A stretch of DNA of 64,000 bases from Escherichia coli (GTDB lineage Bacteria; Pseudomonadota; Gammaproteobacteria; Enterobacterales; Enterobacteriaceae), in the NCBI RefSeq assembly GCF_045037415.1, contig NZ_CP173440.1. One strand, 5' to 3'. This document shows, one piece after another, positions 5,414 to 50,521 of the stretch. The translations under genes and the position numbers were made by a program. The notes under the pieces are model-generated. The model had not been told where the DNA came from. It saw only the letters and a program-made list of their open reading frames with translations, and did not search any database. Each line of letters opens with the position of its first letter. Within the stretch, counting starts at the first letter, position 1.

Positions 5414-6502
5414 TTGGTGGCGTCGTTTTTGCTGACGTTGTTAGTGTTTAGCGTCATACGAGTACGTAAATGGAAATGCGTCAAAGAAACACTAGCTATA
5501 GTATCTTTTGTATACTTACTTAACTTTATAAAAGGTTACCTGAAAATGAACACCAATGTACATCATGTCCAAGAAAATTTTTATATATCATTGCAGGATT
5601 GTATAAATAAAGAAGAGAAAACAAAAAAAACATGCATTGAGTACTGGCGACGTGAAGCTGAGAGGGCGAAGGAAGAAAGCGCAAGACGTAGAGCACTGTC
5701 TATAAAGATAATTACCGAAAAAAGCATGATTCTTGAAACGTTATTTCTAAATATACAAAAAACAAATGCGCTCAAAGAACAGTATGAAAGAAACCTGATA
5801 GCTAAATGGGGTGGCGTTATTGATGACGATAAGACAAAGGATTATGGTATATTCCTCCCTAGTTTGGAACATTTATCTGCTTATGTATCATGTGCAAAGA
5901 ACGATGAATATAGCAGGGAAGTGCTTTATAACAGACCCGAATTATCAAGGGGTATCAAGTATGACAATAGTTATTACTGCCCGCAGGAAAAAAAATTCAT
6001 CTATATGAGGAATGACAAATTTCGTCCAGATCTTGAACTTCTGACAAATCCTCCTTATCCTGATTTTTGTAAGAATTTACTTTACTTTTATGTCAGGTCA
6101 TTTTCGCTGCATCTCAAAAAAGGAGAGCCTGGGAAACCATTGGAGATAGGTATTCGCAATTCAGTGAGCAAAAACACTTATGAAGACTTGTGTATAGGTC
6201 TGGAAATACTTATGCCATACATGTGCAAAACTGAAAGCGGCAAAGTGATTATTAATGATGAAGGATACTTATCATGTGATAGCTATTATAGAAGCATACT
6301 GGTTAACCCGAAAACAGGGGGGGCTGAGTTAGTTATATACAGAAAGGGGCGCTTTGACCATCGACAGAAACCGAATACACGAGAACCTCGTAAGTGGTTG
6401 AATGAAGATATAATAATTAAAGAATTTCCTAACATACGAATTGTTTTTCTATATATCATATCGTGTCGGTATCAGCAGCACTTCAAAAACAGGGATATAT
6501 AG
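5414..6502 (+). CDS. hypothetical protein
   Basis: Long ORF in low-GC DNA; start uncertain (in-frame ATGs at 5414 and 5546). No recognisable motif. Confidence 0.3.
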   Translation: MVASFLLTLLVFSVIRVRKWKCVKETLAIVSFVYLLNFIKGYLKMNTNVHHVQENFYISLQDCINKEEKTKKTCIEYWRREAERAKEESARRRALSIKIITEKSMILETLFLNIQKTNALKEQYERNLIAKWGGVIDDDKTKDYGIFLPSLEHLSAYVSCAKNDEYSREVLYNRPELSRGIKYDNSYYCPQEKKFIYMRNDKFRPDLELLTNPPYPDFCKNLLYFYVRSFSLHLKKGEPGKPLEIGIRNSVSKNTYEDLCIGLEILMPYMCKTESGKVIINDEGYLSCDSYYRSILVNPKTGGAELVIYRKGRFDHRQKPNTREPRKWLNEDIIIKEFPNIRIVFLYIISCRYQQHFKNRDI

Positions 6503-6607
6503 TAAATGCCTCGTAAAACGTGACCCAGTGGGCATGGAGATAATGAGGTTAATAATAAATGAATTTTACATTTGAACGATGTAAATTTCACTAAACATTA
6601 AATATTT

Positions 6608-7135
6608 ATGGCGGTTTCTATGTTCGAACATAACATTGCTTTTAACGGCATGATGATTGTGATTGTTATCTTATCTTATCTGCTATTTAAAAGTCTTAAG
6701 TCAAAGAAAAGGCTTCAGCATAAGTATGATGAGGTGTTTAAGGCTTTTCATATTGCGAATTCAGAGTACACCGGCGGCCTAAAAGAAGTTTACAAAAACT
6801 TATCTTTAAGCAATGCTCAGTTGCAGTTCCTTGCTGTTTACTTAAATCAAGACACTGTCCAGTTTGATGGCAGAAATATTGTGTGCGAAAAAGAGGATGA
6901 TGTTCAGTATATTCTTTCACTTATATCAGACAGCCATTTTTGGTTGGACAAATCCATGAAAGGAATAAATGAAGTGGTAAATAATACGGACGTAATAAAA
7001 GATATTAAATTATCTCTATCACCGTTCGCTTCGTTGGGTGAGCTGAATGTTATAGATGATGAGTTTAAACTGAAAAATAAAGAGTTTGATGGGTTTGCTA
7101 AACTTAAAGTTAAGTATGATGTAAAAAGGGGGTGA
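6608..7135 (+). CDS. hypothetical membrane-anchored protein
   Basis: ORF with N-terminal hydrophobic segment; stop overlaps the start of the next ORF. Confidence 0.35.
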   Translation: MAVSMFEHNIAFNGMMIVIVILSYLLFKSLKSKKRLQHKYDEVFKAFHIANSEYTGGLKEVYKNLSLSNAQLQFLAVYLNQDTVQFDGRNIVCEKEDDVQYILSLISDSHFWLDKSMKGINEVVNNTDVIKDIKLSLSPFASLGELNVIDDEFKLKNKEFDGFAKLKVKYDVKRG

Positions 7136-7740
7136 AAATGGCAGGGGCATTGTTTTCACTTTCTGCTGGTGGGGTGATGTTTGCAACAGCTGTTGTTATT
7201 ATCATCTTTAGTGCTATGCTATATGACAGTATAGTTAAAAGACGTTCTAAAAATATTAACCCACCAGAGTTTACAGGATCACCTCAACTAGCATCTTGCA
7301 ATTGTTCAGGTGGTACTGTCCTGCTTTATCTTGATTTTGATGGAGTCCTCCATCGAAGGATGAATGAGACATTTGAAAGAATGCCTCTACTGGAAAAAAT
7401 TTTAAAACAATGTCCAGAATTACATATAGTCGTGTCCAGCAGTTGGAGGGAAACAATGACTTTAGAAGGGCTTAAATACCTTTTTCCAGTAGCATTCAGA
7501 CACAGAATAATAGGTGTTACACCTTCACTTCAGGAAGTAAAGGATACCGAATATGTTCGGTACAGAGAGTGCCTTTTACATGCCAGACATATGGGGGTCA
7601 ACAAGTTTATTATCATTGATGATGAATCACACCGTTTTCCACCTGGGTGCGAAAATCTGGTGTCAACGAATTACAGTGAGGGGATGACTGACCAAACAGT
7701 AGCATCTGTCATTATGAAATATTGTCAGTACTTAACATGA
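7132..7740 (+). CDS. membrane-anchored HAD-like hydrolase-family protein
   Basis: ATGA start/stop overlap with the upstream ORF; LYLDFDGVLH resembles HAD motif I (DxDG). Confidence 0.4.
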   Translation: MKMAGALFSLSAGGVMFATAVVIIIFSAMLYDSIVKRRSKNINPPEFTGSPQLASCNCSGGTVLLYLDFDGVLHRRMNETFERMPLLEKILKQCPELHIVVSSSWRETMTLEGLKYLFPVAFRHRIIGVTPSLQEVKDTEYVRYRECLLHARHMGVNKFIIIDDESHRFPPGCENLVSTNYSEGMTDQTVASVIMKYCQYLT

Positions 7741-8013: not shown

Positions 8014-8670
8014 TTACTCCAGCTCATGAATCAGCATGCCAGCATGTTTAATGTTTAGAGTCGTCATGTTTGCATTAAGGTCTTTCATCATTCTGGTTCC
8101 GCCGCATCGCACATATTCTCTTAATCTTCCATTGTAGGCAGCGCTGGAAGCGATTTTAAGCTGCTTTATCGGACAGGGAAGATAAGCCACTCCTTTAACG
8201 AGATCGTCCTCAACAGCGTTCAGGTAAACGGGAGAGGCCGCAATGATAAAGATATCATGCCGGTACATACTAAACAGTTCCGCAAGGGAAGGGACTTTTC
8301 CAGGCAGTATGGGGTCAGAAGTCAGCATACCCCATATGCTGGCGCTCTTTCTTCCTATCTTTGTAAACGTAGCATCATAAGGGATCGCGGGGTCAGAACT
8401 GTGTCGTAGGCCCAGACCTGCAGAAATAACCCATAAACAGATATGAGAATTAGAGTTTGCAATAGACTTAGCTGTACTCCAGTGAGCACTACAGTATATG
8501 TTTTCCGTTTCCTTAATATCATCATTACATGTAGTGAATCGGGACTGCACAAGACTTTTCCATTGCTGATAGGCAATCTCAGTATCTGTCGTATGGTAGG
8601 GAAACACAGTGTCATGTACAGGTCCTGCTTTCTTTTTCGCGCATGTTGTAATGAGATGAATAGTCGACAT
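8014..8670 (-). CDS. hypothetical protein (gene 4 of a 4-gene minus-strand operon)
   Basis: Co-directional, tightly spaced ORF; no recognisable motif. Confidence 0.35.
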   Translation of the reverse strand: MSTIHLITTCAKKKAGPVHDTVFPYHTTDTEIAYQQWKSLVQSRFTTCNDDIKETENIYCSAHWSTAKSIANSNSHICLWVISAGLGLRHSSDPAIPYDATFTKIGRKSASIWGMLTSDPILPGKVPSLAELFSMYRHDIFIIAASPVYLNAVEDDLVKGVAYLPCPIKQLKIASSAAYNGRLREYVRCGGTRMMKDLNANMTTLNIKHAGMLIHELE

Positions 8671-8699
8671 TATTCAGAGCCTATAAAGAGTATTTATTA

Positions 8700-9140
8700 T
8701 CAATAAGGTAGTGTATTTAAAGATGGGTATACTGGATCATCTTCAGGCACCCAATAACCAGACCCGCACTCCCATTCTTCTCCAATGAATACGAACATTT
8801 GCCTGGCAAGATATCTCCTGAGTTCCTGAGAGATTACGCTCTCAATTTTTAACAGGTAACTCTTGTTCTTACAATGGGCTTTTAAGTGAGAAAGAAGTGT
8901 ACTGAAGCAGCCTTGATTAGTGATAAATACAGAAACTGATGAAACAACCAGAACAGGTTTACCCAGCAAAGATGCATGTTTGCTACGTGCACGTATATAC
9001 ATGTTTTCGAACAAGGCCAAGCCATCAACATGTCTGGATTTTACTGGTATAATACTTTTATTACTTTCATCCATTAGCCTTTCAAATGTATTGATTATAT
9101 TTGTAATATCAGCCTCTAATATTTTTTGATTAATTATCAT
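8700..9140 (-). CDS. hypothetical protein (gene 3 of operon)
   Basis: ORF 8700..9182; start moved to the internal ATG (MIINQK...) to limit overlap with the upstream gene. Confidence 0.3.
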   Translation of the reverse strand: MIINQKILEADITNIINTFERLMDESNKSIIPVKSRHVDGLALFENMYIRARSKHASLLGKPVLVVSSVSVFITNQGCFSTLLSHLKAHCKNKSYLLKIESVISQELRRYLARQMFVFIGEEWECGSGYWVPEDDPVYPSLNTLPY

Positions 9141-9639
9141 TGTACTCTGCAACCCCGGTGTTTGTAACATTCTTAACATCACTGATTAAACTAATATCTA
9201 CAGAATGTGCCAGTGTTGTTAGCTCGGTAAAGTTAATTTTTTCGTAATAACCATCACTGATTAAGTTTAATAAATTAAAGTCCAGGGCAGGTGGTGGGCA
9301 AATGCTTCCAGAAGTGTAAAGATACTCAAGCCCACGCGCATCAAATATGCCGTGAGGGGCACCCTCTGATAGTTTTCCACCTGAATATAACTCAACCCAT
9401 ATCCTGAGTCGGTAATCCAGAGTGAATTCACCTATCTCAATCCAGAAATGTGGATATAACTCAAAATACGTTTTGGGGTTTTTAACTACCCCGCACATTC
9501 GTTGATGAGAAATGCCTGCATGATTTAGAGCACTGCTTATCATTAATGTATGACCATCGCACTCAACGGGTGCATTCTCAATAGCCTGTAAGAGATTGTT
9601 TAACTTCACAAGACAATCGGGCATAAGGATATTGGCCAT
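9130..9639 (-). CDS. hypothetical protein (gene 2 of operon)
   Basis: ORF, 8-bp gap to the upstream gene. Confidence 0.35.
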   Translation of the reverse strand: MANILMPDCLVKLNNLLQAIENAPVECDGHTLMISSALNHAGISHQRMCGVVKNPKTYFELYPHFWIEIGEFTLDYRLRIWVELYSGGKLSEGAPHGIFDARGLEYLYTSGSICPPPALDFNLLNLISDGYYEKINFTELTTLAHSVDISLISDVKNVTNTGVAEYNDN

Positions 9640-9647
9640 ATAAATAC

Positions 9648-10061
9648 CTATTCCGGAATTTCTGAGAGGAATTCATTAAAGAGATTATCATCGTACAGTG
9701 GGTATAATTGCTTCATCATACCAAAACCGGACATAGCTGCACTTCGCAAGTCGGGATAAAAAGTAGGCTTAGTGATAAGATCGCATTCATTCTTCAGCAC
9801 ACCTTCGAAGCAGCCGTAATCTTCCCCAAACTCCTGAACTATCATCCAACGGCCATCCTTGCATTCAACTACCATAATAGCAGACTTGGGGTAGTCGCCA
9901 GCTGGGGTCAACCAATCAAAATGGTAGTGGGTGATAGTTTGATAACTCTTATGGACATTCATAGCATTAACCCTAATGCAAGACTTACAACGTGAGAGGT
10001 TAGTGTCTGATAAAGCACTGTATATATATGGGTCTTCCCTTGTTGTGGTGGCTGAAGGCAT
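9648..10061 (-). CDS. hypothetical protein (gene 1 of operon); 5' end runs into the ISL3 inverted repeat
   Basis: The first ~14 codons (…EDPYIYSAL…) are encoded by the 23-bp terminal inverted repeat of the adjacent ISL3 element, so the native 5' end is probably disrupted or replaced. Confidence 0.3.
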   Translation of the reverse strand: MPSATTTREDPYIYSALSDTNLSRCKSCIRVNAMNVHKSYQTITHYHFDWLTPAGDYPKSAIMVVECKDGRWMIVQEFGEDYGCFEGVLKNECDLITKPTFYPDLRSAAMSGFGMMKQLYPLYDDNLFNEFLSEIPE

Positions 10062-22263: not shown

Positions 22264-22329
22264 TTTGCTACATTAATAACAAATCGTTAATAATACGGTG
22301 TTATGTTAACGACACCAGCCGAGCCATAC

Positions 22330-22890
22330 TCAGAATTCATTTCGCAACAGCTGATAACCTTCCACCAGTTTGACATTAGTGCTGGCGACTTCTTCTGAAA
22401 ATTGTAAAGAAGCGGGATCCACTTTCGAATAACTTTTAAGATCGGAATCTGGCCCCACGCGTTCCGTTGATGGAATATAGGTGTTCTCAGGCAAGGTAAC
22501 GCCATCCACAACTGCATTATAGCGAATAACACAACCCGTCTGAATATGACAGTTAAACAACACACTGTTGAATCCAATAAATACCCGCTCGTCAACCTGA
22601 CAGGGGCCATGCACTATTGCACGGTGGGCAATAGATGTTCCGCTTCCTATCGTCACTGGCGCGCCGCTTTTTGAGTGAATAACCACTCCGTCCTGAATAT
22701 TAGAGTGGGAATGGATAATGATAGGATCCATATCCCCGTCTGCATTTAGCTCGTCAGCACGGATAACCGCATAGGGTCCGACGTAAACATAATCATGAAT
22801 AATGACACGTCCACAAATTACCGCGGTGGGATCGATATAGGCCTTTGTTGACACCACTGGGGTATGACCTGATGGGTTTTTACGTAACAT
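22330..22890 (-). CDS. gamma-carbonic-anhydrase-like hexapeptide-repeat protein
   Basis: Left-handed beta-helix repeat pattern (…AVICGRVIIHDYVYVGPYAVIRAD…). Start set at the internal ATG (MLRKNPSG) to avoid a large overlap with the upstream gene. Confidence 0.6.
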   Translation of the reverse strand: MLRKNPSGHTPVVSTKAYIDPTAVICGRVIIHDYVYVGPYAVIRADELNADGDMDPIIIHSHSNIQDGVVIHSKSGAPVTIGSGTSIAHRAIVHGPCQVDERVFIGFNSVLFNCHIQTGCVIRYNAVVDGVTLPENTYIPSTERVGPDSDLKSYSKVDPASLQFSEEVASTNVKLVEGYQLLRNEF

Positions 22891-23815
22891 TTTTACTTCC
22901 TTTCCAGTGAATACGGGCAACGGCATTATGGGGATGCAGGCTTTCCTGATGTTCAACCCTGATATCAAATGCTTCACAAAAGGGTGCACAACGAAAAACG
23001 TTATTGAGCCGACGGGCAGCATCTTCGCAAAACATCAGATTCTGACCGTTAGCCACCGCAAAAGCCTGTTCGTCGCTCCGCTTGACAACCGTTTGCACGG
23101 CTGTCCCGAGAGCAACTTCAGCATAATCAATCAGTTCAATCACAGGCAGTGATTTTGCTTCAGGATTAAGACGGATACTCACCCATGCCCAGCTTCGCTG
23201 GCTGTGCGGGGTTGCCGGCATTCCTTTCTCAACAAGCCAGTCGGCTATTTCTGCTGCCGGGAGCCTGTCGATCCTGTTACCAAAGTCTTTGCTAAACTGC
23301 AAACCCGCGACGTGGCGGCTAAGTGCAGCGGAAGCCGGGCAGGTGGACGAATAAGGGATACCCACTTTGAGGGTAACCGTAAAAGATTGCCTGAGTTCGG
23401 CGCTCAGAGTCAGAGGATAAGCTTTCCAGCCGGAGTGATTAGAATTTAACGACTTACGCGACAGTAACAAATCCCCTGAAATCTCAATACTGGCTTCATC
23501 ACTACGTCCCTGATGAGATACCAGAAATGCTTTCAACACATGTTGCAATAATGCCGGTGTGATTTCCCCTTGTGTCAGTTCGTCCAGAAGAAGATAAAGA
23601 CGAGACATATGGATCCCCTTTTCAGCTTCAGGTGAACTGAGAAGGTTTATGCCAGCATTGACCTTTGCTGATACCGGCCTGCCTGCGATGTCTATCGGCA
23701 GGTCAATTTGTTCCATGCCAACCCAGGATAATGACTCGCCCTCACCGTCACCCTTAGTGGACTGAATATCCGGTAGCATTCCGGGGCATAAGGTTTGTTT
23801 GGCTGCAATACTCAT
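22880..23815 (-). CDS. folE2: GTP cyclohydrolase FolE2-like (type IB)
   Basis: LPDIQ… and GIHMSRLY motifs resemble the FolE2/MptA family. Confidence 0.5.
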   Translation of the reverse strand: MSIAAKQTLCPGMLPDIQSTKGDGEGESLSWVGMEQIDLPIDIAGRPVSAKVNAGINLLSSPEAEKGIHMSRLYLLLDELTQGEITPALLQHVLKAFLVSHQGRSDEASIEISGDLLLSRKSLNSNHSGWKAYPLTLSAELRQSFTVTLKVGIPYSSTCPASAALSRHVAGLQFSKDFGNRIDRLPAAEIADWLVEKGMPATPHSQRSWAWVSIRLNPEAKSLPVIELIDYAEVALGTAVQTVVKRSDEQAFAVANGQNLMFCEDAARRLNNVFRCAPFCEAFDIRVEHQESLHPHNAVARIHWKGSKNVT

Positions 23816-23878
23816 ATATACCTGCCTGATCTGATATTTACTCTCATCCCTACCCTGCCCCCTGCCTGAGCCACCGCT

Positions 23879-24301
23879 TTATTTCTTTCGGTACTGAATC
23901 TCAACTTTTTCCTCCTTTGTTTTGGCTTCAATACTTAATTCTGCGGTGGGCCTGAGTAGCAGGCGTTGCAGACCGATAGGTTCGCCTGTATCCCGGCAGA
24001 AGCCATATTCTCCTTTTTCAAGCCGCATAAGCGCTGCATCATATTTCGGCAACAGGCGGCTTTCTCTGTCTATCTGTCTGAACAGCAGACGTAACTGCTC
24101 TTCACGAATGGCGATGTCACCTTCGTCACCCGTTTCTGGATTATCCTGCAGTTGTTGCTTCATCTGGTCTATATGATCAAGCACCTCCTGCCTTTCGTGG
24201 CGGATAAGCCGCCGGAAGTAGTCCTGTTGCACAGGATTCATGTAATCTTCTGGCAGCATCGCCAGGATTTTTTCTCGTTCAGCGCGGGTAGGTTTAGTCA
24301 T
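23879..24301 (-). CDS. dksA2: DksA-like protein lacking the Cys4 zinc finger (DksA2-like)
   Basis: DksA/TraR C-terminal region is present, but only one of the four zinc-finger cysteines remains (GFCRDTG…ELSIEAK). Confidence 0.7.
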   Translation of the reverse strand: MTKPTRAEREKILAMLPEDYMNPVQQDYFRRLIRHERQEVLDHIDQMKQQLQDNPETGDEGDIAIREEQLRLLFRQIDRESRLLPKYDAALMRLEKGEYGFCRDTGEPIGLQRLLLRPTAELSIEAKTKEEKVEIQYRKK

Positions 24302-24329
24302 GTCCTGTACCGATAAAATTGCGTAATGA

Positions 24330-24348
24330 AACGTTATAACATAACATT
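24330..24348. promoter_or_regulatory. Zur-box-like operator upstream of the dksA2-like operon
   Basis: AACGTTATAACATAACATT (reverse complement AATGTTATGTTATAACGTT), about 29 bp upstream of the start codon. Confidence 0.55.
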
Positions 24349-24371
24349 AACTGCCGCTGCAAAATAACCTG

Positions 24372-25571
24372 TTAAGCCAGCCGGGCCACTTTCGTGGGCC
24401 AGGGATCGTGGAAAATCCCCCCCTGCTGCCACCAGAGAATTTCCTCTTCAGTGAGTAAACACTGGCGCAATGCGAGGGCAAAATCGTCAATTTCGCCGCT
24501 CTCGCCAATAACAGTCAGGCGGCAGCGCCGGTCACCAAATCTGCCAGGCATTTTTGCCAGTTGCTGACGGATAGCTGCGCGTTCTTCCTTTGTCAATGAA
24601 TTATCAGTGTGAGTCAGGACCCCGGCTTTCCAGTAGCTTATGAATTCGAGATTGATGCTCCCTGCTGCCTGGTTCCACAATAATGCCAGGTCATCCCTTC
24701 CCGGTAGCCAGAAAAACCCCTTGCTGCGGTAAACGCCTGCGCCCATGAAGCGATGGCAGGTATCCCACAGCCGCTGCGGATGAAATGGACGGTCATCCTC
24801 AATGACCCTCCACGAAATATCGTATTTTTTATCGGTTTCATCCGGCAAAACTGCGTCAATGGCATCCTGAAGCTCATCGATAAGTAACGCCACCCGATGA
24901 AAATCGTAATCCGGCATGGAAAGCAATTCATCCAGCTGTAAATTTCCCCAGGGCACGGCCATAATTGCAACCTGGGGATTAAGGGGATGTATGGCTCTGG
25001 CTACCTCAGTAACCACATAGAAGGGTAACCGGTCGTTTTTGGTTAATAAGAGCTTATTACAGAACATAATCTGTTCTGCCAGCAGGCTTTCCACTCCCCG
25101 GGTTCCTTTATTGAGGTGCTCCTGGAAAACCGGAATAAGCTTCTTTCCACCGTCGTAGTCATCATTAAGCATGACCGTATCAACAAGAGACAAAAATGCT
25201 TTGAGACTTACCTGGGTATGTTCTCGCAGATAGCGGACCAGGGGAAGAGGATGGCTGCTACCTGAGGTTTCCAGTAAAATAAAATCCGCAGACCGTTTTT
25301 CGAGCAGGTTTTTCAGCGCGGAATCCAGCTTCTGGATCCCGCTTCTGCTGCTGATACTGTCTGCTGAAATACTCACAAAATTGTTACTGGCTGCATCAAC
25401 GATTTCTGTGTTGGCTATCAGGACGCCATCCACATCAAGTTCACTCATGTCATTAACGATGACGGATACAGTCATTCGCCGTTTGTGTGCCTGTGTAAGA
25501 AGGTTTTTTAGCAGAGTAGTTTTCCCTGCCCCCAGAAAACCATTAAGGATAATGAGCGGTGTTCTTTTCAT
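24372..25571 (-). CDS. COG0523 (CobW/ZigA/YeiR-like) GTPase paralog with SxSA in place of the CxCC motif
   Basis: P-loop [11 protein letters not shown]. Where family members have GCICC this protein has VSISADS. Start set at MKRTPL. Confidence 0.8.
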   Translation of the reverse strand: MKRTPLIILNGFLGAGKTTLLKNLLTQAHKRRMTVSVIVNDMSELDVDGVLIANTEIVDAASNNFVSISADSISSRSGIQKLDSALKNLLEKRSADFILLETSGSSHPLPLVRYLREHTQVSLKAFLSLVDTVMLNDDYDGGKKLIPVFQEHLNKGTRGVESLLAEQIMFCNKLLLTKNDRLPFYVVTEVARAIHPLNPQVAIMAVPWGNLQLDELLSMPDYDFHRVALLIDELQDAIDAVLPDETDKKYDISWRVIEDDRPFHPQRLWDTCHRFMGAGVYRSKGFFWLPGRDDLALLWNQAAGSINLEFISYWKAGVLTHTDNSLTKEERAAIRQQLAKMPGRFGDRRCRLTVIGESGEIDDFALALRQCLLTEEEILWWQQGGIFHDPWPTKVARLA

Positions 25572-25668
25572 AGCATCCAGCCTTATGCCGCTAAACGTTA
25601 ATGCAATCAAGTTGCAATAATACCGGCTTCCTGCCAAAATTCAAATGACATGACTCGGAGGGGGAAAT

Positions 25669-26121
25669 ATGACAACACCAGTAGCCAAAACGTATGACTG
25701 GAAGCAAACGTTGCGCACACATGGTTTGCGGGCAACGCCATCCACCCTTGCTACACTGCAGTGCCTTGAACATGCCAGCCAGGCCATGAGCCATGACGAT
25801 TTAACTCAGCAACTGGGCGAGCAGGCTCCCGATCGTGTGACCCTTTACCGAATACTGGAACGGCTAATGCAGGTCAGTATTGTCCAGCGTTATACCGACT
25901 CGGCAAGAACTCAGCGTTTCGCTCTGACCCAACGGGCTGCCGTAGGACTTTTTGAATGCGATAACTGCCATCATGTTATTCCTATTGAGCAGGATCCAGC
26001 CCTGGAAGCGGCCATTGAATTGGTAAAATCACATCTCACTGGACATGGTATGACCGAACGGGAAATTACCCTTTCCAGTCATGGTATCTGTCCGGACTGT
26101 AATCGTACTATCACCAAATAA
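25669..26121 (+). CDS. zur: Fur-family metalloregulator, probable Zur
   Basis: CDNCHH…CPDC motifs of the Fur family; divergent from a COG0523 gene and co-directional with the CysRS paralog. Confidence 0.7.
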   Translation: MTTPVAKTYDWKQTLRTHGLRATPSTLATLQCLEHASQAMSHDDLTQQLGEQAPDRVTLYRILERLMQVSIVQRYTDSARTQRFALTQRAAVGLFECDNCHHVIPIEQDPALEAAIELVKSHLTGHGMTEREITLSSHGICPDCNRTITK

Positions 26122-26202
26122 TTTTTTTCTTATTCCGGACGACTGTTAATTAGCGCCAGGCGTGTTCGTGTGCTGCTATCTAAAAATAATGAGGTAAACG
26201 TA

Positions 26203-27585
26203 ATGATTAAACTAACAAACACGCTTGGTATGCAAAAGGAGCTATTAGTTCCGGTTAAAGAGAGCAAAATCGGCATGTATGTATGCGGCGTGACGGTTTA
26301 TGACCTTTGCCATCTTGGGCACGCCAGAACCTTTGTAGCTTTTGATATGATTGTCCGCTATCTGCGTTTTCGCGGATACGATGTGACTTTCGTGCGTAAC
26401 ATTACTGATATAGATGATAAAATTATTCAGCGCGCCCGTGATACGGGAGAGGACTGGCGCAGCCTGACAGAGCGGATGGTGCATGAAATGCACATTGATT
26501 TTGCAAAGTTAGGCATCCTGCCGCCAAACATCGAACCTCGTCCCACAGAGCACATCCCACAAATCATCAGTATGATCGAACGACTTCTGCATCGACAATT
26601 TGCTTACATTGCAGAGAATGGTGACGTCATGTTCTCCACTGCATCGGCAAAAGGCTATGGAAAGCTTTCGGGACAGGATATTACCATGCTTCGTGCCGGG
26701 ACCCGCATCGAAGTGAATGAGTATAAACGCGATCCGCTGGATTTTGTTCTCTGGAAGCGGGCAAAACCCGGCGAGCCCGTCTGGCCATCACCCTGGGGTG
26801 AAGGGAGACCTGGCTGGCATATTGAATGTTCCGCAATGAACTGCCATTACCTTGGTACCCATTTCGACATTCATGGCGGTGGTTCTGACCTGATATTTCC
26901 CCATCATGAAAATGAGATTGCCCAATCCACCTCCGCCAATGATGGCCCTTACGTAAATTACTGGCTTCACACCGGCATGGTGACGGTGAATAAAGAGAAG
27001 ATGTCGAAATCGCTGAATAACTTTTTTACCCTGCGCGATATTCTGAATCGGTTCGATGCCCAGAGTGTGCGCTTCTTCCTGCTAAGCGCACATTATCGTA
27101 AGCCGCTGAATTATAGCGAGGAGAATATTCACCTCGCGCGCGCCTCGCTGACACGGCTCTACACCGCATGCCAGTTCGCTGACGGGTCTCGATCTGAACA
27201 GCACGATGCATGGCGGGCCAGATTCTGTGAGGCAATGGATGATGATTTCAATACACCCCAGGCGCTTGCCATTTTATTTGAACTGACAAGAGAGATTAAC
27301 AGGCTTTGCGGAACGAATGATGATGAAGCCGCAGCACTTGCCACCACGCTGAAAGACCTGGGGAATGTGCTGGGTTTGCTTGAACAATCAGCGGATGCCT
27401 TTTTGAAAAACCGCAGTGATCTTCATCCTGCAGAACTGCAACTTATTGAAAAGTTAATTCACCAACGCAGTGAGGCACGACGTATGGGCAAGTGGGACAA
27501 GGCCGATCGTTTAAGAAATGAATTAGCGGAGCAAGGCATTGATCTTGAAGATGTCGGCGAAAATACCTCATGGCGTATCCGATAA
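26203..27585 (+). CDS. cysS: cysteinyl-tRNA synthetase paralog
   Basis: Full-length class I CysRS similarity (GMYVCG…HLGH, KMSKS). Zinc-ligand positions are conserved ([25 protein letters not shown]). Confidence 0.85.
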
Positions 27586-27620
27586 GTTGTCCCTCTGGAT
27601 GTAAAAAATTTCAATATCAA

Positions 27621-27639
27621 TTGTTATGTTATAACGTAA
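27621..27639. promoter_or_regulatory. Zur-box-like operator
   Basis: TTGTTATGTTATAACGTAA, 17 bp upstream of the flavoprotein start codon. Confidence 0.55.
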
Positions 27640-27655
27640 TGCAAAGGGTAATTTT

Positions 27656-28786
27656 ATGAACCAACCACGCGAAGTCGTTATTGTCGGTGCGGGTCCGGCC
27701 GGGGTGGGTATGGCGGCGCTTCTTCGTCGTAGTGCCATACAGGATATCCTGGTCGTTGACAGTCACGAAGTAGGTGCCTCCTTTATGCGCTGGCCGGAAG
27801 AAACCCGTTTTATTACTCCTTCTTTTTTTTCCAATCCGTTTGGACAACCAGACCTGAACTCTGTGACCCCTGACAGTTCATTGGCGCTTTTCTGCGGTGA
27901 AGAACATCCTGGGGGGAAAACTTATGCCAGTTACCTTAAGGCCGTACTGGATGAGTATCAGATACCCGTCATGGCTCCCGCCAGGATTGCAAAGGTTGCG
28001 TTGCTCAGTTCCGGTAATTTTATACTGATAACAGAAGCAGGAGAGAAGCTGGAAACACGCTCTTTAATATGGGCTACAGGCGAATTCCAGTTCCCAGACC
28101 GGCAGATTTTTCCTGGAGCAGATATTTGTTGCCATTACGGTGATGTGACCAGCTGGAAGGATTTCAGGAAAGGTGAATACATTGTTATAGGCGGCTATGA
28201 AAGCGCGGTGGATGCCGCTGTAAACCTGCTGGAAAATGGCTCATCGGTAAAAATGTTAACCCGCTCAGCCCCTTGGTCAACTAACCACATCAGCGATCCC
28301 AGTCTATCGCTTTCCCCTTATACCCGTGAGCGTTTGAACAGAGTGATGAATCACCGTCTTTTCGAAATTTATGAAGATGCGGATGTCTGTGAAGTAATCA
28401 GAATGCCCGGCCCGGGAAGTTCGTACAAAGTCCATACCACAAACGGACGCGCCTGGGCTACTGACGAGGTGCCTGTGCTTGCTACCGGCTTCCAGTGTGG
28501 CGGAGGAGCAAGGCAACTGGCTGCTTTTTTTGAATGGAATGATGATGGCTATCCGGTCTTAACGGACGAAGACTGCTCAACCCTTTTTCCTGGTTTGTAC
28601 CTTGTCGGCCCTCATGTGCGGCATGCCGGTAATATTTATTGCTTTATCTATAAGTTCCGTCAGCGCTTTCCCGTCGTGGCAGAAAGTATCACGCGTCATC
28701 TGGGCCTGTCCTCTGAAGGAGTACGGGACTGGTGGGTTCTGCCTTCAGAGCCTGACTGCTGTGCCGATGAGGACTGTGCGTGCTGA
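27656..28786 (+). CDS. FAD/NAD(P)-binding flavoprotein (flavin-monooxygenase or thioredoxin-reductase-like) with Cys-rich C-terminus
   Basis: VVIVGAGPAGVG FAD-binding fold, second GG…AVDAA dinucleotide motif, LATGFQ motif, C-terminal CCADEDCAC. Confidence 0.6.
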   Translation: MNQPREVVIVGAGPAGVGMAALLRRSAIQDILVVDSHEVGASFMRWPEETRFITPSFFSNPFGQPDLNSVTPDSSLALFCGEEHPGGKTYASYLKAVLDEYQIPVMAPARIAKVALLSSGNFILITEAGEKLETRSLIWATGEFQFPDRQIFPGADICCHYGDVTSWKDFRKGEYIVIGGYESAVDAAVNLLENGSSVKMLTRSAPWSTNHISDPSLSLSPYTRERLNRVMNHRLFEIYEDADVCEVIRMPGPGSSYKVHTTNGRAWATDEVPVLATGFQCGGGARQLAAFFEWNDDGYPVLTDEDCSTLFPGLYLVGPHVRHAGNIYCFIYKFRQRFPVVAESITRHLGLSSEGVRDWWVLPSEPDCCADEDCAC

Positions 28787-30447
28787 GGTCCGTGTTTATG
28801 CAATCATTCGTTTTAATGGGATTAGAAAGTGCAGGAAAATCTACCCTGTTTAATATCCTGACGGAAAGTGCTGCCAGTGATGAGCGTAATTTCAGGGGAT
28901 CGACCGTTGTATGTCGGGAAGGTCTCATTAATGATGCAGGGATCTGCCTGGTTGATACGCCAGGCATACGTTTTCAGAGCGACAGTGAAACCACAAAACT
29001 CGCCCTTGATGCGCTAAATCAGCATGATGGCATTCTGGTGGTTCTGCGGGCCACGCACGCTCAGCAGGAGTGGCAAACGCTCTGTCACCTCATACCGCCA
29101 CAGGCAAAACACGTTGTTATACTCCTGACCTTTGCTGATAAGATCAGAAAGGGCCTTCTGGAAGTGACTGAATACCTGAGTGAAACATCAGGTGCGCCGG
29201 TACTGGCAGTCAATGCCCGGGAAGCTGGCAGCAATGTTCGCCAGGGAATAGTGCAGTTGCTGTTGCAGGATAAACCTGCACCCTCCGCTGTCTCTTTACC
29301 CCGTCAAAAGATACCGGTAATTAATCTGCTGGCTGAATTTCCTCAACAAACGATATTTGAACATCGTTGGTGTGGAAAAGTTGCTGCAATAGTATGCCTT
29401 TTCCTGCTGTTTGCCGTTCCGGTATGGGGGGCATGGCTGCTGTCAGATTTTATTCAGCCTGTCATTGACAGTGCGGTTATTCAGCCGCTTAAGAATATAA
29501 CGACGAGCTGGCCCGACGTTCTGAAGACACTATTTGTCGGCAATTACGGTCTTTTTAGTCTGGGACTTTATTCGTTTGTATGGGCATTTCCTGTGGTGGT
29601 ACTGATAGGGTTGTCTCTTTCGCTGACTGACGACAGTGGACTTAAGGAAAGAATTACAGCGACGCTGGATCCCTGGTTGAGAAAACTCGGCCTCAGCGGT
29701 CAGGACCTTATTCCTGTATTAAGCGGTTTCGGCTGTAATGTCGTGGCGGTTTTTCAGAGCCGTTCGTGTTCGCGATGCACCCGGCATGCTTGTATAAGTA
29801 TGATTAGCTTTGGGTCCGCTTGCAGCTATCAGACGGGGGCGACGCTTTCTCTTTTTAATGCCGCCCATCAACCATGGCTCTTTATCCCCTATCTCAGTCT
29901 GCTGTTTTTCACAGGCGCAATACATACGCGCCTCTGGAACGGGTCGTTGAAGCCTGGCCAAAACCAGCGTCTGACAGAGATCACCTGGCTACAATGGCCA
30001 CGCTGGCGAAATGTGACATGGATGCTGAAAAATATCCTCCGTCAGTTCATTACGCAAGCCATGCCGTTATTCCTGATTATCTGCATTGTTGCGGGGATGC
30101 TTGATTACGCAGGGATCACTCGCTGGCTGAGTGAAACGACGGCACCTTTACTTCATCTTTTTAAACTGCCAGCAGAACTGATGCCCGGGATCATTTTTTC
30201 ACTGCTAAGGAAAGATGGTTTGATGGTGCTCAATCAGGATGGCGGCAGCTTAATACAGTCTCTCAGCACATCTCAGTTACTGCTACTTGTCTGGCTCGCC
30301 TCTACGTTGATGGCCTGCCTTGTCACGGTATTTACCATCGCCCGGGAAATAAACTGGCGGTTTGCAGCAGCAGTGGCGGGAAAACAGGTATTAAGTTCTC
30401 TGGTGGTGGCTCTGGTGATATCCCAGTTATTTATTCATGAGGCATAA
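28780..30447 (+). CDS. FeoB-family transporter with a divergent G-domain
   Basis: G1 GLESAGKSTLFN and G3 DTPG; membrane domain with LSGFGCNVVAV gate-like motif; shorter than canonical FeoB. Confidence 0.6.
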   Translation: MLRSVFMQSFVLMGLESAGKSTLFNILTESAASDERNFRGSTVVCREGLINDAGICLVDTPGIRFQSDSETTKLALDALNQHDGILVVLRATHAQQEWQTLCHLIPPQAKHVVILLTFADKIRKGLLEVTEYLSETSGAPVLAVNAREAGSNVRQGIVQLLLQDKPAPSAVSLPRQKIPVINLLAEFPQQTIFEHRWCGKVAAIVCLFLLFAVPVWGAWLLSDFIQPVIDSAVIQPLKNITTSWPDVLKTLFVGNYGLFSLGLYSFVWAFPVVVLIGLSLSLTDDSGLKERITATLDPWLRKLGLSGQDLIPVLSGFGCNVVAVFQSRSCSRCTRHACISMISFGSACSYQTGATLSLFNAAHQPWLFIPYLSLLFFTGAIHTRLWNGSLKPGQNQRLTEITWLQWPRWRNVTWMLKNILRQFITQAMPLFLIICIVAGMLDYAGITRWLSETTAPLLHLFKLPAELMPGIIFSLLRKDGLMVLNQDGGSLIQSLSTSQLLLLVWLASTLMACLVTVFTIAREINWRFAAAVAGKQVLSSLVVALVISQLFIHEA

Positions 30448-30449
30448 GT

Positions 30450-30656
30450 ATGATCCCCAAGACTTACCAGCAATGGTACCGGTGCATCACAGAAGAATGT
30501 GGAATTCCCTTGACGCAGGCATTTATTGCATCCCGTCTGGCAGTCCTTGAGTCCCAAGATCATCAGGAAACCAGACGTTTTGTCTCGCTATATGGGCAAC
30601 AACATCTGAATAGTGTTGTACAGTGGTTCAAAAAAGCTGGGGAAGAATTGTTGTAA
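30450..30656 (+). CDS. small hypothetical protein, translationally coupled to the FeoB-like gene
   Basis: 68-aa ORF starting 3 nt after the FeoB-like stop. Confidence 0.35.
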   Translation: MIPKTYQQWYRCITEECGIPLTQAFIASRLAVLESQDHQETRRFVSLYGQQHLNSVVQWFKKAGEELL

Positions 30657-30681
30657 ATCTGCCCCCTTTTCGCTTTCATAC

Positions 30682-30710
30682 GAAGGCACCCGACAAATGC
30701 GGGTGCCTTC
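30682..30710. terminator. perfect 11-bp stem hairpin between convergent genes
   Basis: GAAGGCACCCG-acaaatg-CGGGTGCCTTC. A near-identical hairpin recurs at 61555-61585. Confidence 0.4.
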
Positions 30711-30713
30711 GAT

Positions 30714-31937
30714 TCATTCTTCGAACCAGGGCTCAACAGGATCGGAATAATGCCGCCACTTTTGAGGCCCTTCTGCCATTTCTGCATCCGTTAACAGGGC
30801 GGAATCCAGTCTGTTGCGCAGTTCTGATTCATTCATATCCATTCCAATAAAAACGAGTTCCTGACGGGCATCACCAATGCCATCTATCCAGTTAGACATG
30901 ATGAACTTCAGTGACTCAGCATCCTCTGGCCAACGTCCTTTCGGCACACTAGCCCACCACATGCCCCCCAGCCCCTGGCGCGCAATGCCACCTGCCTGCG
31001 ACCATGAACCTGCGAATTCCGGACGGCTGGCCAGCCAGAAGTAACCTTTTGATCTGACGACTCCATCCAGCTCATTTTCCATCACCTGCCAGAAACGGGT
31101 CGGATGAAAAGGCCGGCGGGCGCGAAAGACAAAGCTGGTGATCCCATATTCTTCTGTCTCCGGCGTATGTTCGCCCCGGAGTTCTTTAAGCCAGCCGGGT
31201 GCCTGAGCGGCCTGCTCGAAATCAAACAGCCCGGTATTAAGTATGTTGCCCAGCGGAACCTGTCCAAACTGTGAAACAACGATTCTGGCCCGTGGATTAA
31301 GCGAACGTAAAATCGCCATCAGTTTTTCTTTTTGCGCTTCACTGATAAGGTCAACTTTATTAAGGACCAGCACATCACAGAATTCAATCTGATCGATCAG
31401 CAAGTCAACAACGCTCCTTTCATCACCTTCACCTAACGATTCTCCGCGTGACTGAATGCTGTCTTCCGAACCGTAGTCTTTCAGAAAATTGTACGCATCC
31501 ACCACAGTGACCATGGTGTCAAGGCGGGCCACCGTCGAAAGGCTTTCACCGTCATCGCCCGCAAAGGTAAATGTTTCAGCAACAGGCAGAGGCTCAGATA
31601 TACCGGTGGACTCAATGACAAGCTGATCAAAACGCCCTTCTTTTGCCAGACGATTAACTTCGAGAAGAAGATCTTCGCGCAATGTGCAGCAAATGCAACC
31701 GTTGCTCATTTCTACCAGTTTTTCATCAGTCCGGGAGAGTTCTGCACCACCTTCCCTCACAAGGGCAGCATCAATATTCACCTCAGACATATCATTAACA
31801 ATGACAGCAACACGACGGCCTTCCCGGTTGTTCAGAATATGGTTAAGCAGTGTCGTTTTCCCTGCTCCCAAAAATCCCGAAAGTACGGTAACCGGCAGGC
31901 GTTTATCGCCATGAAAATTTGCACTGACTTCGGACAT
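30714..31937 (-). CDS. COG0523 GTPase with canonical CxCC motif
   Basis: P-loop [11 protein letters not shown] and GCICCTL metal motif, followed by a CobW_C-like C-terminal domain. Confidence 0.8.
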
Positions 31938-31973
31938 TACCTTACATCTCCTCAGATATTCGTTGTGTTCGGA

Positions 31974-32381
31974 TTAACCAGGATCGTTGAGCACGGTTAG
32001 CTCATCGCCTTTAATGGCGTTGTAAAAACAACTCCGCCGACCTGTGTGGCAGGCTCCACCTTTTTGATCCACTAGCAGTAGCACCGCATCTCCGTCACAA
32101 TCCAGACGGATATCATGTACTTGCTGAACGCAGCCGGAGGTCTCACCTTTTCGCCAAAGGCATGATCGGGATCGCGACCAGTAACAGGCTCTGCCAGTCA
32201 ATAAGGTTTCATCAAGAGCCTGTTGATTCATCCAGGCAAGCATCAACACCTCTCCAGTGTCATATTGCTGTGCAATCGCAGCGATCAAACCATGAGAATC
32301 CCAGGGTATTGACGGCAGGATATCCTCAAGCTGAAACACTGCTCCTGCATGGGCTTTTTCCAGTAACAGAAACATTGGCAC
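31974..32381 (-). CDS. hisI: phosphoribosyl-AMP cyclohydrolase paralog (HisI-like)
   Basis: 135 aa with HisI-like core (…WSRSRS…[28 protein letters not shown]); Cys/His ligand positions appear retained. Confidence 0.65.
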
Positions 32382-32393
32382 CCCACCTTTTTG

Positions 32394-32411
32394 ATGTTAC
32401 GTTATAACATA
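32394..32411. promoter_or_regulatory. Zur-box-like operator
   Basis: ATGTTACGTTATAACATA, 13 bp upstream of the hisI-like start, in the divergent region with a Fur-family regulator gene. Confidence 0.55.
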
Positions 32412-32519
32412 TCAAACATAATTGCCAGTTATCACGATTTCACAGGCACTGTACTTCTTGGGTAACATCTGACCGGAAAAAGAAACAAAGCAAATGTGAT
32501 AGAGGCAGCAGGAGGCAAG

Positions 32520-33020
32520 ATGAATAACAAACTACATTCTGAATTGATTAAGAAAGCTATGTTCCCGGATCTAGGCTGTTCAGAATTTAGGGAACTGACT
32601 GCCCGTAAGGCGATGCGAATTACTCCGATGCGGATGATGGTGTATCACTTCATCAGGTGTGCTGAAGACAAAGGTATCAGTGCATACCAAATCCTTGACC
32701 AGTTAAAATCATATAACCCAAATGCAAAACCAACTACTGTTTATCGTACTCTGGATTATCTACAACAGGCTGGAGTCATTGTAAAAATAGAAAGCTGTAG
32801 CAAGTTTGTAAAAAAGAATAGCTTTCCCCATGAAGGATTAACACTTTTTATGATTTGTTCAAACTGCGGTACAATCATTCAGCATACAGACAGCAAAATA
32901 CAATATTACGTTGAGGATAAATCACATGAATATGGGTATATTATGCAAAGAAAGGACATAGAAATCAGTATAATTTGTCCCGGTTGTCAGGCTAATGAAA
33001 AAATGGCGCAATCTGGGTGA
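32520..33020 (+). CDS. second Fur-family regulator (low-GC, divergent from the hisI-COG0523 operon)
   Basis: Winged-helix region and CSNCG…CPGC structural-zinc-type motifs. Start set at MNNKLH. Confidence 0.6.
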   Translation: MNNKLHSELIKKAMFPDLGCSEFRELTARKAMRITPMRMMVYHFIRCAEDKGISAYQILDQLKSYNPNAKPTTVYRTLDYLQQAGVIVKIESCSKFVKKNSFPHEGLTLFMICSNCGTIIQHTDSKIQYYVEDKSHEYGYIMQRKDIEISIICPGCQANEKMAQSG

Positions 33021-33395
33021 ATTGTGCTCAATAAGCATACGATTAGTAACTTCCCATATTATATGTGAAACAGAAAAAATATTATTACGGTCGATAAAAT
33101 TAAGAATAATATAAATTAGCACTCCCACAAATATTGATTGAAATAATGCTGAATTATTTTCAATAAATAATACAAATAATGCAATTTGAAAAATACCTAC
33201 CTATCATGTTTAGCAAAGCATGACTATTTAGGATCATAAAAACAAAAAAGGAAATTTATAATTTATTTATTTTAACCGTTTTATTTGCACTCCATGTAAA
33301 TGCATGCTTAAATTCCCATGCATTTCCTAAACAATATTACTAATGACCTTTATATACAATAATACAGAAATCCTAAATAACTGATCCTAATACCG

Positions 33396-34390
33396 CTACA
33401 GTTTAGCCAACCCATGTTTTCCACCGGGGAATGGGCTGACGGTATTCATAAAGTGACGAACCTTTTTCAACAGTTTCCACATTGAGTGGCACTGATGATT
33501 TCGGGTTATTGTCTCGTGAAGCGCCTGCCACAACCGTTCGACATGATTGACCCGCGGCGAGTAAACCGGCTGATAAATTACCCTGAACTTCGGGTTTGCT
33601 TTCAGCCAACGCAACGTTTCACGGCTTTTGTGGATGATGTGGTTATCGACAATGAGCGTAATCGTTTTTGCCCGCCGGTATGTCGCCTTCAGATGTTTTA
33701 AGTCTGATAAATAAGGAAGAACCTTTACTGTTTCCACTAACGTAGCTGGCTTTTCCTGTATCGCTGTGCAGCGCACCGGCAAGATAGTACTTTTCATTCT
33801 GGCCCAGCGTGACTACGCGCTTTTGCTGCCCGCGCAGATGCCAGTCAGCACCAATTTTGGGATTGAGGTGAATATCCACTTCATCTTCGTAAAATACGGG
33901 GTTTTCCGCACTGCATTCGCCAGTGCTTCATGGATAGCGACCATTTTTTCTTCTTTGTGTGGGGCACGGATACGCAGTGTCGGCGCTGCTCTCCGCCATA
34001 CCAGTCCGGCAGCAGGTAACCATCGCCGGATGGTTGAAGCATGTAGCGGACAACCGATAACATCACGGACTTTTATCGCCAGCAGTTCGGTGCTCCAGCG
34101 GGAACGCTGATAACTGAAATCGCCGGGAGAATGCTTAACAAGCTCAAGCAGCAATGCGCAAATATGTTCGAACGGCCAGCGCCTCCCACGTCCTGACGGC
34201 AATGATTTCAGGCCTTCAGTACCAGACAGCGTGAACCAGTTAATCTAGCGACCAATCGATGAGCGGGCACAGCAGAGCGTTCTGGCAACATGACTGACGG
34301 TGTCACCATGATGCAGCATCAGCATGGCGGTGAGCCGCCGGGCGAGGTTTTTGTCCTTTGTTTTATTGATATTTTTATCCATCAGGCGTC
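33396..34390 (-). pseudogene. IS630-family transposase, broken into three or more frames
   Basis: ORFs 33396..33797 (DDE C-terminus, …YQPVYSPRVNHVERLW…) and 33813..34202 (N-terminal part), plus an HTH piece near 34250-34390. Confidence 0.55.
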
Positions 34391-49732: not shown

Positions 49733-50521
49733 AACCTGGGCGGAAACCACTCGAAAAGTAACTTTTGGACAGATTTAGAAGCCGGTTACCCCCACTATTG
49801 TTATTAACATAATATTAACACAAGGAATAATCGTTATTATTCGAACTGTAACTAGGATGTTGCATACCTCTTGAAGCGATGAAAATATGAGCATATTTCT
49901 CATTATTCCTGAATCCATACATTTTTATTGTTTTTATAGCGACATATTGAAACTCTGTTTTATTTAATAAGTATCAATTTTATAATCAATTTCTGTTATT
50001 TTATCGCTATTGACATTTACTATTGTGACTATATCCAATGATATTAGATCACTTACATCTGAAAGTGACAGTGTCACGGATTGTGCACCCAGAGAGACCC
50101 TTTTCGTGAAAAAAGTAGTTCACTCCCATAACGAAACGTGGGCTTCTTTTTTGCAGATCGTATGTGGATGTCTTCAGGTAGCAGGAAGGAAAGTGATGCA
50201 GGCATGAAAGGATGACAAACCGGCAAAGGGGCTGCTACTGCTCCATATTCAACAAACCACCCCTGGTTAGTTGAATCCTTTGCCGGTTTTCCTGACAATA
50301 CCAGACAGGTAAACTTTTTCCATCAGATTTTCTCGTCAACATGTTGCATTCATAGTTTTTCCATAATTGGATGCTTTTGCAGGACAACTACGGTTTTTAT
50401 CCTTTCGTGCCCGGTAAAAAAAATAGTTAAATAGCGATTTCACCCTTTTAAAGGAAAAATTGTCCTCAGGCTCACAGTACTATAAAAGTATCAATAATCA
50501 GGAGCCGGTAATGACTCCAAC

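Follow-up and report, generated by a model that had tools for sequence, protein, structure and literature searches.

A stretch of 64,000 nucleotides of Escherichia coli DNA (assembly GCF_045037415.1, contig NZ_CP173440.1; hereafter the window) carries four tightly packed minus-strand genes at positions 8014 to 10061, directly downstream of an insertion sequence (IS) of the ISL3 family. These genes, here termed g1 to g4, are intact, selectively maintained accessory genes in a compact arrangement on a Klebsiella IncHI1B/IncFIB-type megaplasmid backbone (MobH relaxase, MobI). They are a loose mosaic of separable parts rather than a fixed four-gene system, and g4 is, by sequence, a short orphan of the DpdC/DUF6884 lineage. 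We regard this account of the anatomy of the locus as very probable.

The open reading frame (ORF) listing of the window places four co-oriented minus-strand ORFs at 9648-10061, 9130-9639, 8700-9182 and 8014-8670. A reading of the DNA made from the sequence alone (the sequence-only reading) had described them as four tightly packed ORFs behind an ISL3-family element, and both observations hold. The protein sizes it gave, 137 to 218 amino acids, required correction of two starts. After this the products comprise 104 residues for g1 (9648-9962, minus strand; WP_004196316.1; start ATG at 9962), 169 for g2 (9130-9639, minus strand), 146 for g3 (8700-9140, minus strand) and 218 for g4 (8014-8670, minus strand). 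The start of g3 at 9140 is backed by the N-termini of its homologues. A gap of 8 nucleotides separates g1 from g2, the start of g3 overlaps the stop of g2 by 11 nucleotides, and 29 nucleotides lie between g3 and g4; from this spacing, the four genes are probably co-transcribed. Ratios of nonsynonymous to synonymous substitution (dN/dS), calculated from codon alignments with diverged alleles, were 0.09-0.25 for g1, 0.21-0.32 for g2, 0.26 for g3 and 0.17 for g4. All four ORFs are thus under purifying selection and are kept as coding sequence rather than being chance ORFs. The operon is AT-rich: its GC content is 40.8%, whereas the window as a whole has 47.4%. At 99.94% identity over 49.7 kb, up to position 49756, the window runs collinear with NZ_CP173548, an IncHI1B/FIB-type hybrid virulence plasmid, and several K. 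pneumoniae megaplasmids have a stretch identical to the far end of the window.

Families of the four proteins

The sequence-only reading found no recognisable motifs in any of the four proteins and proposed remote-homology searches and structure prediction for each. Homology searches for all four and structure models of g2 and g3 overturn that description for three of them: g4 was assigned to a family by profile, and g2 and g3 were given folds by model. For g1 there is no known fold and no database match. Direct sequence searches of all four proteins against PDB, Pfam, NCBIfam and PHROGs gave nothing significant other than DUF6884 for g4 and phrog_30866 for g3.

Against the PADLOC DpdC model PDLC02818, g4 aligns over profile positions 1-234 of 319 with an E-value of 1.4e-42. 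Eight PADLOC models match the protein, seven of them DpdC and the eighth the defence candidate PDC-M57A. A match to Pfam DUF6884 (PF21818) covers residues 53-175 with a weak score (E = 8e-5). The signature motifs of DUF6884 are CxxxK and LSAxxG (PMC11701544), and g4 carries both, as C10AKKK14 and I82SAGLG87. Genuine DpdC proteins (318-327 amino acids) share 33-36% identity with g4, and a tblastn search with a genuine DpdC recovers g4 at 33% identity (E = 7e-29). Genomic context was checked for one such protein, P0069 (327 amino acids), which is encoded directly beside TGT/DpdA, DndB/DpdB and SNF2/helicase genes. It has 36 invariant columns in common with g4, including Cys10/Lys14, H63-W64, S83-A84-G85-x-G87, H90 and D93.

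Like the DpdC of Dpd systems, g4 aligns across the entire catalytic region and keeps the invariant residues. It differs in its length (218 against 318-327 amino acids), in lacking, on the alignment, a 14-residue insert and some 95 residues of C-terminal tail, neither of which occurs in its whole clade, and in its context. Searches of the window and of about 100 kb of matching plasmid found no DpdA or DpdB homologue, and neighbours of the dpdD-K type were also absent. The missing DpdA and DpdB, together with the missing tail, indicate that g4 is a short orphan of the DpdC/DUF6884 lineage rather than a Dpd component. Judged by its sequence, g4 descends from this lineage and lacks two features that define Dpd membership, namely the full-length architecture and dpdA and dpdB as neighbours. 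Its clade is a plasmid-borne short form of 215-245 amino acids with varying neighbours.

Two lines of earlier work bear on the chemistry of such proteins. DpdC from the Dpd system of Salmonella Montevideo hydrolyses DNA-borne 7-cyano-7-deazaguanine (preQ0) to its 7-amido derivative, and it is reported to act on preQ0-modified DNA independently of DpdA/B (PMC10164549). DUF6884/YaaA relatives have been linked to DNA-damage handling, and YfjM of Bacillus subtilis to the binding of abasic and RNA-base lesions (PMC11701544). The DUF6884 match and both motifs also liken g4 to YfjM and to the 'cantaloupe' fold of YaaA; this likeness is one of sequence, and YfjM differs in being tied to abasic and RNA-base lesions, not to 7-deazaguanine. 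In a pLVPK-type locus (L003, 10316-10975) the PGAP annotation marks only a 104-amino-acid C-terminal piece of an intact 218-amino-acid g4, under the name 'tgtA5 cluster protein 2', and an NCBIfam scan of full-length g4 gave no match. Most records thus give the full-length gene no more than the label 'hypothetical', and literature searches with the protein accessions and with 'tgtA5 cluster protein' found no papers.

The predicted model of g2 has a papain-like core fold in which a cysteine at the N-terminus of a helix is followed by a histidine and then an aspartate. Family members with as little as 28% identity still keep residues E26-C27-D28-G29, H64-x-W66 and D75 unchanged, consistent with a predicted Cys27-His64-Asp75 triad. 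The papain-like core and the Cys-His-Asp order are common to g2 and to bacterial cysteine proteases and deamidases of the transglutaminase-like type, such as LapG, protein-glutaminase, SseI and Ceg10. Neither Pfam, where the best hit was Transglut_core3 at E = 0.39, nor PADLOC returned a significant match. We therefore describe g2 as a predicted papain/transglutaminase-like Cys-His-Asp enzyme, so assigned by fold and triad rather than by a significant profile.

The predicted model of g3 has the alpha/beta fold of GNAT enzymes. A Foldseek search of this model against AFDB50 returned proteins annotated as N-acetyltransferases (best E = 1.9e-11, TM-score 0.90, 29% identity), and the anti-CRISPR GNAT AcrVA5 is among the closest solved folds. 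The family alignment contains a motif-A-like stretch, V..PGxGxF..LL...IENV...FR.YL.R.GF. The acetyl-CoA loop (Q/R-x-x-G-x-G/A) is degenerate: it reads TNQGCFS in g3 and PGKGFFR or PGTGIFR in distant homologues, and only the central glycine is invariant. No acetyltransferase match was found in Pfam, NCBIfam, PADLOC or PDB with either the alignment or single members, and the single profile match of g3 is to phrog_30866, a PHROG family of no known function. Assignment to Vsr endonucleases (E = 0.05-0.36; PADLOC E = 0.046) was rejected on the model, which is GNAT-like and not Vsr-like. In its fold, g3 thus resembles AcrVA5 and other minimal GNATs; it differs from them in having no sequence-level match and in its degenerate loop for binding the acetyl-CoA pyrophosphate. 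These data support g3 as a putative N-acyltransferase of minimal GNAT fold, outside any family defined at sequence level and with an uncertain cofactor loop.

The family of g1 consists of stand-alone proteins of about 105 amino acids with an HxH(L/F)D motif at the N-terminus and a DGRW motif in the alignment, and comprises 41 representatives among 1.8 billion proteins. No match was found in Pfam, PDB, PADLOC, NCBIfam or PHROG. Relatives of g1 are found among runs of small genes that share one orientation, in one case two genes upstream of psiA.

Conservation across plasmids and phages

The complete set of g1 to g4 is confined to closely related Klebsiella backbones, at nucleotide identities of at least 92% (587 PLSDB records, IncHI1B/FIB-type). 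Relatives of the single genes are found in 1,309 (g1), 2,262 (g2), 1,698 (g3) and 3,114 (g4) PLSDB plasmids, most of them conjugative. The carriers of g4 relatives include pOXA-48, IncHI2, Enterobacter and Phytobacter plasmids, and no g4 homologue was found in phage genomes. Where relatives of g4 share 37-51% identity with it, g1 to g3 are not nearby; the gene often follows a helix-turn-helix (HTH) gene and a gene of 300-400 codons, or stands alone. Consistent with this, no four-gene synteny was found around g4 homologues at 39-51% identity.

Several plasmids illustrate the arrangement around g4 relatives. In pOXA-48 (L023, 7514-9672), a g4 homologue of 43.5% identity is the last gene of an apparent operon, behind genes for a 90-amino-acid HTH regulator and a 395-amino-acid protein annotated as a RelB/DinJ-family antitoxin. 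Enterobacter and Phytobacter plasmids are similar, with a small gene and a gene of 300-400 codons ahead of the DUF6884 gene. The partners coupled to g4 relatives (89-406 amino acids) gave no PADLOC or NCBIfam match.

The other genes also occur in varying company. The syntenic slot of pKP18-31-IMP holds a g2-like and a g4-like gene without g1 or g3, and pTEM-2262 carries a g3-like gene adjacent to a g2-like gene in reversed order, at 47% and 35% identity; this adjacency is the single sign of functional pairing. In IncHI2 plasmids the relatives of g1, g3 and g4 are scattered over three sites, the g1-like gene with a serine protease, and in IncC plasmids a g2-like domain lies 4-5 kb from mobI/repA. 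Beyond plasmids, homologues of g3 occur at 30-33% identity in 35 jumbo phages of Erwinia, Dickeya and Yersinia (about 250-266 kb), each translationally coupled to a different uncharacterised protein of about 148 amino acids (L025, 2998-3441; L026, 2998-3435). Local hidden Markov models found no g2-like neighbour of the g3 homologues in jumbo phages or IncHI2.

Evidence of exchange is also found within the cluster itself. Between two Klebsiella lineages (window 8014-9962 against L003 10316-12265), amino-acid identity rises along the operon, from 78% for g1 to 87% for g2, 96.6% for g3 and 98.6% for g4, which indicates recombination breakpoints inside the cluster. In pWSCRKP-1, a classic hypervirulence plasmid that is pLVPK-like and non-mobilizable (L027, 3299-3724), a deletion runs from just after the DsbA gene into g4. 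It removes a HAD-domain gene and two uncharacterised genes and leaves about the first 64 codons of g4, with g1 to g3 intact, and the same partial g4 match was found in four further plasmids. The four genes are joint only in near-identical backbones and keep different neighbours at 35-50% protein identity. This largely matches the outcome, ORFs not conserved together in other genomes, that the sequence-only reading had named as its own refutation. Together these data show that g1 to g4 are a loose mosaic of separable parts.

ISCfr12, the start of g1 and neighbouring features

The insertion sequence upstream of the operon is ISCfr12, of the ISL3 family (1,316 bp; 10030-11345, plus strand; transposase at 10097-11317), recognised from its terminal repeats, boundaries and PGAP name. 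Its boundaries were set by aligning the window with the IS-free plasmid pYS1718-1 and by a repeat search. The terminal inverted repeats are imperfect (GGGTCTTCCC.../...GGGAAGACCC), and the element is flanked by an 8-bp target-site duplication, ATATATAT, with the left copy at 10022-10029 and the right copy, located by alignment and repeat search, at 11346-11353. The IS-free allele has this sequence in single copy. The transposase, the terminal inverted repeats, the AT-rich 8-bp target duplication and the empty site in IS-free plasmids are all features of ISL3 membership. The exact junction is present in 76 PLSDB plasmids against the 587 carrying the operon, so the insertion is a derived event of a sub-lineage.

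The 137-amino-acid 'leading gene' of the sequence-only reading is a longest-ORF artefact. It adds to g1 a spurious N-terminal extension of 33 codons (9963-10061, minus strand), of which 32 nucleotides (10 2/3 codons; 10030-10061) belong to the left end of ISCfr12 and the next 22 codons to native 5′ untranslated sequence, the leader at 9963-10029 including the target duplication. In the IS-free allele an in-frame TAA closes the upstream frame, leaving ATG 9962 as the first start. PGAP calls the identical 104-amino-acid protein in plasmids with and without ISCfr12. The diverged pLVPK-type allele starts g1 at the same codon, there GTG, with an AGGAGA ribosome-binding site ahead of it, and no Shine-Dalgarno sequence precedes ATG 10061. 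Taken together, these observations rule out the longer ORF as the real g1.

It follows that the fourteen codons said to be encoded by the ISL3 inverted repeat are in fact 10 2/3, and part of an artefactual ORF. Nor does the element truncate g1 or supply its start: the insertion is intergenic, 67 bp upstream of the g1 start, and leaves the coding sequence untouched. The search for the operon without the IS, which the sequence-only reading had proposed, found IS-free plasmids with an intact and identical g1, and the four ORFs at this locus are all intact and differ little or not at all from IS-free alleles. For the further suggestion that the element provides a promoter, a consensus scan with chance-level matches placed no promoter-like site in the IS end or the 67-bp spacer. 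ISCfr12 is thus comparable to ISL3 elements that activate or disrupt adjacent genes in being complete and directly upstream of the operon, and differs from them in that it is intergenic, causes no fusion or truncation, and has no outward promoter detected in the scan.

Further upstream lies ISKpn21 of the ISNCY family, whose left end and transposase (11493-12896) occupy 11363-12896 on the plus strand; it was placed by PGAP annotation and by a left boundary inferred from the point where two operon lineages become identical. This element stood upstream of g1 before ISCfr12 arrived, 76 nucleotides from the g1 start in the pNDM-MAR type and 19 nucleotides in the pLVPK type (locus L003, 12285). A weak candidate promoter, TTGAGC-18-CATAAT (11408-11379, minus strand), points outward from the ISKpn21 end; it is no more than a match to the consensus, at roughly the rate expected by chance, and ISCfr12 shifts it 1,324 bp further from g1. 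Counts in the promoter and terminator scans were at shuffled-sequence expectation, and such scans cannot show that a promoter is absent. ISKpn21 has a companion DUF6904 gene (window 11363-13569). In IncHI2, the operon with the g1-like gene abuts ISLad2, also of the ISNCY family (L014, 5859-7205). The repeated presence of ISNCY elements beside g1 may reflect coincidence, target preference or an outward promoter.

On the plasmid, the transfer genes flank the operon on one side and a block of H-NS, thermonuclease and PsiA genes on the other. On the opposite strand at 5414-7740, convergent with g4, are three uncharacterised backbone-conserved genes, two with longest ORFs of 362 and 175 amino acids and one for a 202-amino-acid HAD-domain protein; they come after the DsbA/thioredoxin transfer-associated genes. 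At about 22321-33011 the window contains an island of paralogues of the zinc-sparing/Zur-regulon type (folE2, zigA, a second cysS, dksA, hisI, a carbonate dehydratase and two Fur-family regulators), several of which are frameshifted in the matching RefSeq record. The product of folE2 catalyses the first step towards preQ0, and nothing connects folE2 with g4. In NZ_CP173548.1, an orphan gene for type I-E CasE (Cas6e) and, behind it, part of a DEAD/DEAH helicase gene lie between copies of IS5 and IS1 at 32587-34118 (L017, 6888-8419). The CasE fragment looks like a remnant of a CRISPR-Cas system; the site is beyond the collinear stretch, which ends at 49756, and its presence in the window is unconfirmed.

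Possible functions of the cluster

These data allow us to hypothesise that g1 to g4 are a mosaic of mobile-element accessory enzymes for plasmid establishment or counter-defence, each working on its own or, at most, g2 together with g3. We hold this reading tentatively, at somewhat below an even chance, and its functional part, that establishment or counter-defence is what the genes serve, is by analogy and more doubtful. In such a scheme, g4 would bind DNA, flip a base into a pocket formed by the CxxxK and SAGxG motifs, and alter a modified or damaged base without DpdA or DpdB. For g3, with its GNAT fold, the proposed role is acylation of a small molecule or a host protein; g2 would cleave, deamidate or transacylate such a target. 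Expression of the genes in this window may be lowered, given that ISCfr12 separates them from any upstream promoter. A counter-defence role is suggested indirectly by the distribution of the genes on plasmids and in jumbo phages, the runs of small genes around g1 relatives, the psiA/H-NS context, the likeness of g3 to AcrVA5, and the deletion of g4 in a non-mobilizable pLVPK-type derivative.

Anti-defence islands have been described in plasmid leading regions, the first-transferred kilobases beside the origin of transfer (oriT), where genes on the T-strand are read from single-stranded DNA promoters (Samuel et al. 2024, PMC11541004). Placement of our operon in such a region could not be established: the distance to mobI/mobH, and presumably to oriT, is about 22 kb, while genes for PsiA and H-NS occur in the surroundings. 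This position relative to oriT, at best uncertain and perhaps unfavourable, is one of several points that weigh against an establishment or counter-defence role. That role is argued from context and fold analogy, and the operon status and expression of the cluster are inferred from spacing alone. The chemistry of DpdC needs preQ0-modified DNA, and nothing here makes such DNA. PADLOC classes the g4 family as defence, not anti-defence, and the link of DUF6884/YaaA to DNA damage would mean a housekeeping role (PMC11701544).

This last point leads to the alternative that the genes are functionally unrelated backbone neighbours, with g4 a YaaA/YfjM-like protein of DNA damage or oxidative stress, g2 and g3 generic fitness enzymes, and no role in conflict with defence systems. 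Such a reading accords with the dissociation of the four genes at moderate evolutionary distance, with the stepwise change in allele divergence along the operon and the recombination this implies, with the link of DUF6884/YaaA to the recognition of DNA lesions (PMC11701544), and with umuDC and other repair genes on the same plasmids. It sits less well with the tight spacing and the g2/g3 overlap, which suggest co-expression, with the recurrence of the g2-g3 pair in a second, diverged plasmid, and with a bias towards conjugative plasmids and jumbo phages over chromosomes that fits conflict or establishment; we consider it unlikely. The cluster might instead be silenced cargo in this particular plasmid, cut off from its promoter by ISCfr12, still intact and heading to decay. 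The position of ISCfr12, the failure to see a promoter-like site in the spacer or IS end, the displacement of the candidate promoter at the ISKpn21 end and the prior loss of g4 in other lineages would all agree with this. Against it, the four ORFs are intact and (nearly) identical to IS-free alleles, the insertion persists in 76 sequenced plasmids, and promoter scans at chance level cannot show absence. Silencing would be compatible with any functional reading, and we give it a slim chance.

The sequence-only reading had suggested a toxin-immunity or phage-defence module. The defence half of this retains some footing, as the g4 family was first defined in a defence system (Dpd); neither half has a signature in PADLOC, NCBIfam or Pfam, which returned no toxin-antitoxin pair and no complete defence system, and the locus is not recognisable as either. 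A plasmid-borne module directed at rival plasmids or at phages, perhaps a reduced system of the Dpd kind or another one based on DNA modification, in which g4 would mark or sense DNA and g2 and g3 would be effectors, is improbable in our view. Its case draws on the seven DpdC models and PDC-M57A matched by g4, on the AT-rich region beside IS elements, as is often seen in defence islands, and on the fact that plasmids do carry defence systems. It is set back by the PADLOC results for the remaining genes (no match for g1 or g2, the weak Vsr hit for g3, no complete catalogued system), by a neighbourhood with no DpdA, DpdB, nuclease, helicase or ATPase, by the missing DpdC C-terminal tail of g4, by the varying partners of g4 relatives, and by the relatives of g3 in lytic jumbo phages, which would be unusual for a defence gene. 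Least probable of all, we think, is an addiction module of the toxin-immunity or toxin-antitoxin kind, in which g3, as a GNAT toxin like TacT or AtaT, or the papain-like g2 would be neutralised by g1. Small overlapping genes and a plasmid setting rich in toxin-antitoxin loci (hok, RES-Xre and stbDE nearby) would suit it. Yet the region upstream of g3 holds no ribbon-helix-helix or HTH antitoxin gene, g1 is not a companion of g2 or g3 in other replicons, g3 has different neighbours in IncHI2, pTEM-2262 and jumbo phages, NCBIfam and Pfam contain no toxin-antitoxin match, and the fold likeness of g3 is general to GNATs rather than specific to toxins.

The tentative reading of a mosaic of establishment or counter-defence enzymes has a bolder extension, which we consider quite improbable. 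The short orphan DpdC-like proteins on more than 3,000 Enterobacterales plasmids (pOXA-48, IncHI2, IncHI1B/pLVPK-type) would represent a new, autonomous DNA-base-editing activity of mobile elements, with g2 and g3 as unrecognised counter-defence effectors common to plasmids and jumbo phages. If this were true, 7-cyano-7-deazaguanine or another modified base might be rewritten in plasmid, host or phage DNA, evading or subverting modification-dependent immunity.

For annotation, the analysis corrects a plausible-looking but false call of an IS-truncated gene and shows an apparent four-gene system to be a mosaic. The locus resides on hybrid virulence/resistance megaplasmids of K. pneumoniae and has relatives on pOXA-48, IncHI2 and IncC. 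Plasmids of these three types and the Klebsiella megaplasmids are the principal carriers of resistance to carbapenems and colistin. Both g2 and g3, the latter common to plasmids and jumbo phages, are cheap candidates for anti-defence screens. The most interesting component is the orphan clade of short DpdC-like proteins, which is carried by thousands of clinically important plasmids and has no described function. The current Dpd model does not account for a stand-alone DpdC-like enzyme that is present on so many plasmids without DpdA/B, and the orphan gene offers a direct test of 7-deazaguanine or related base-flipping chemistry in plasmid biology.

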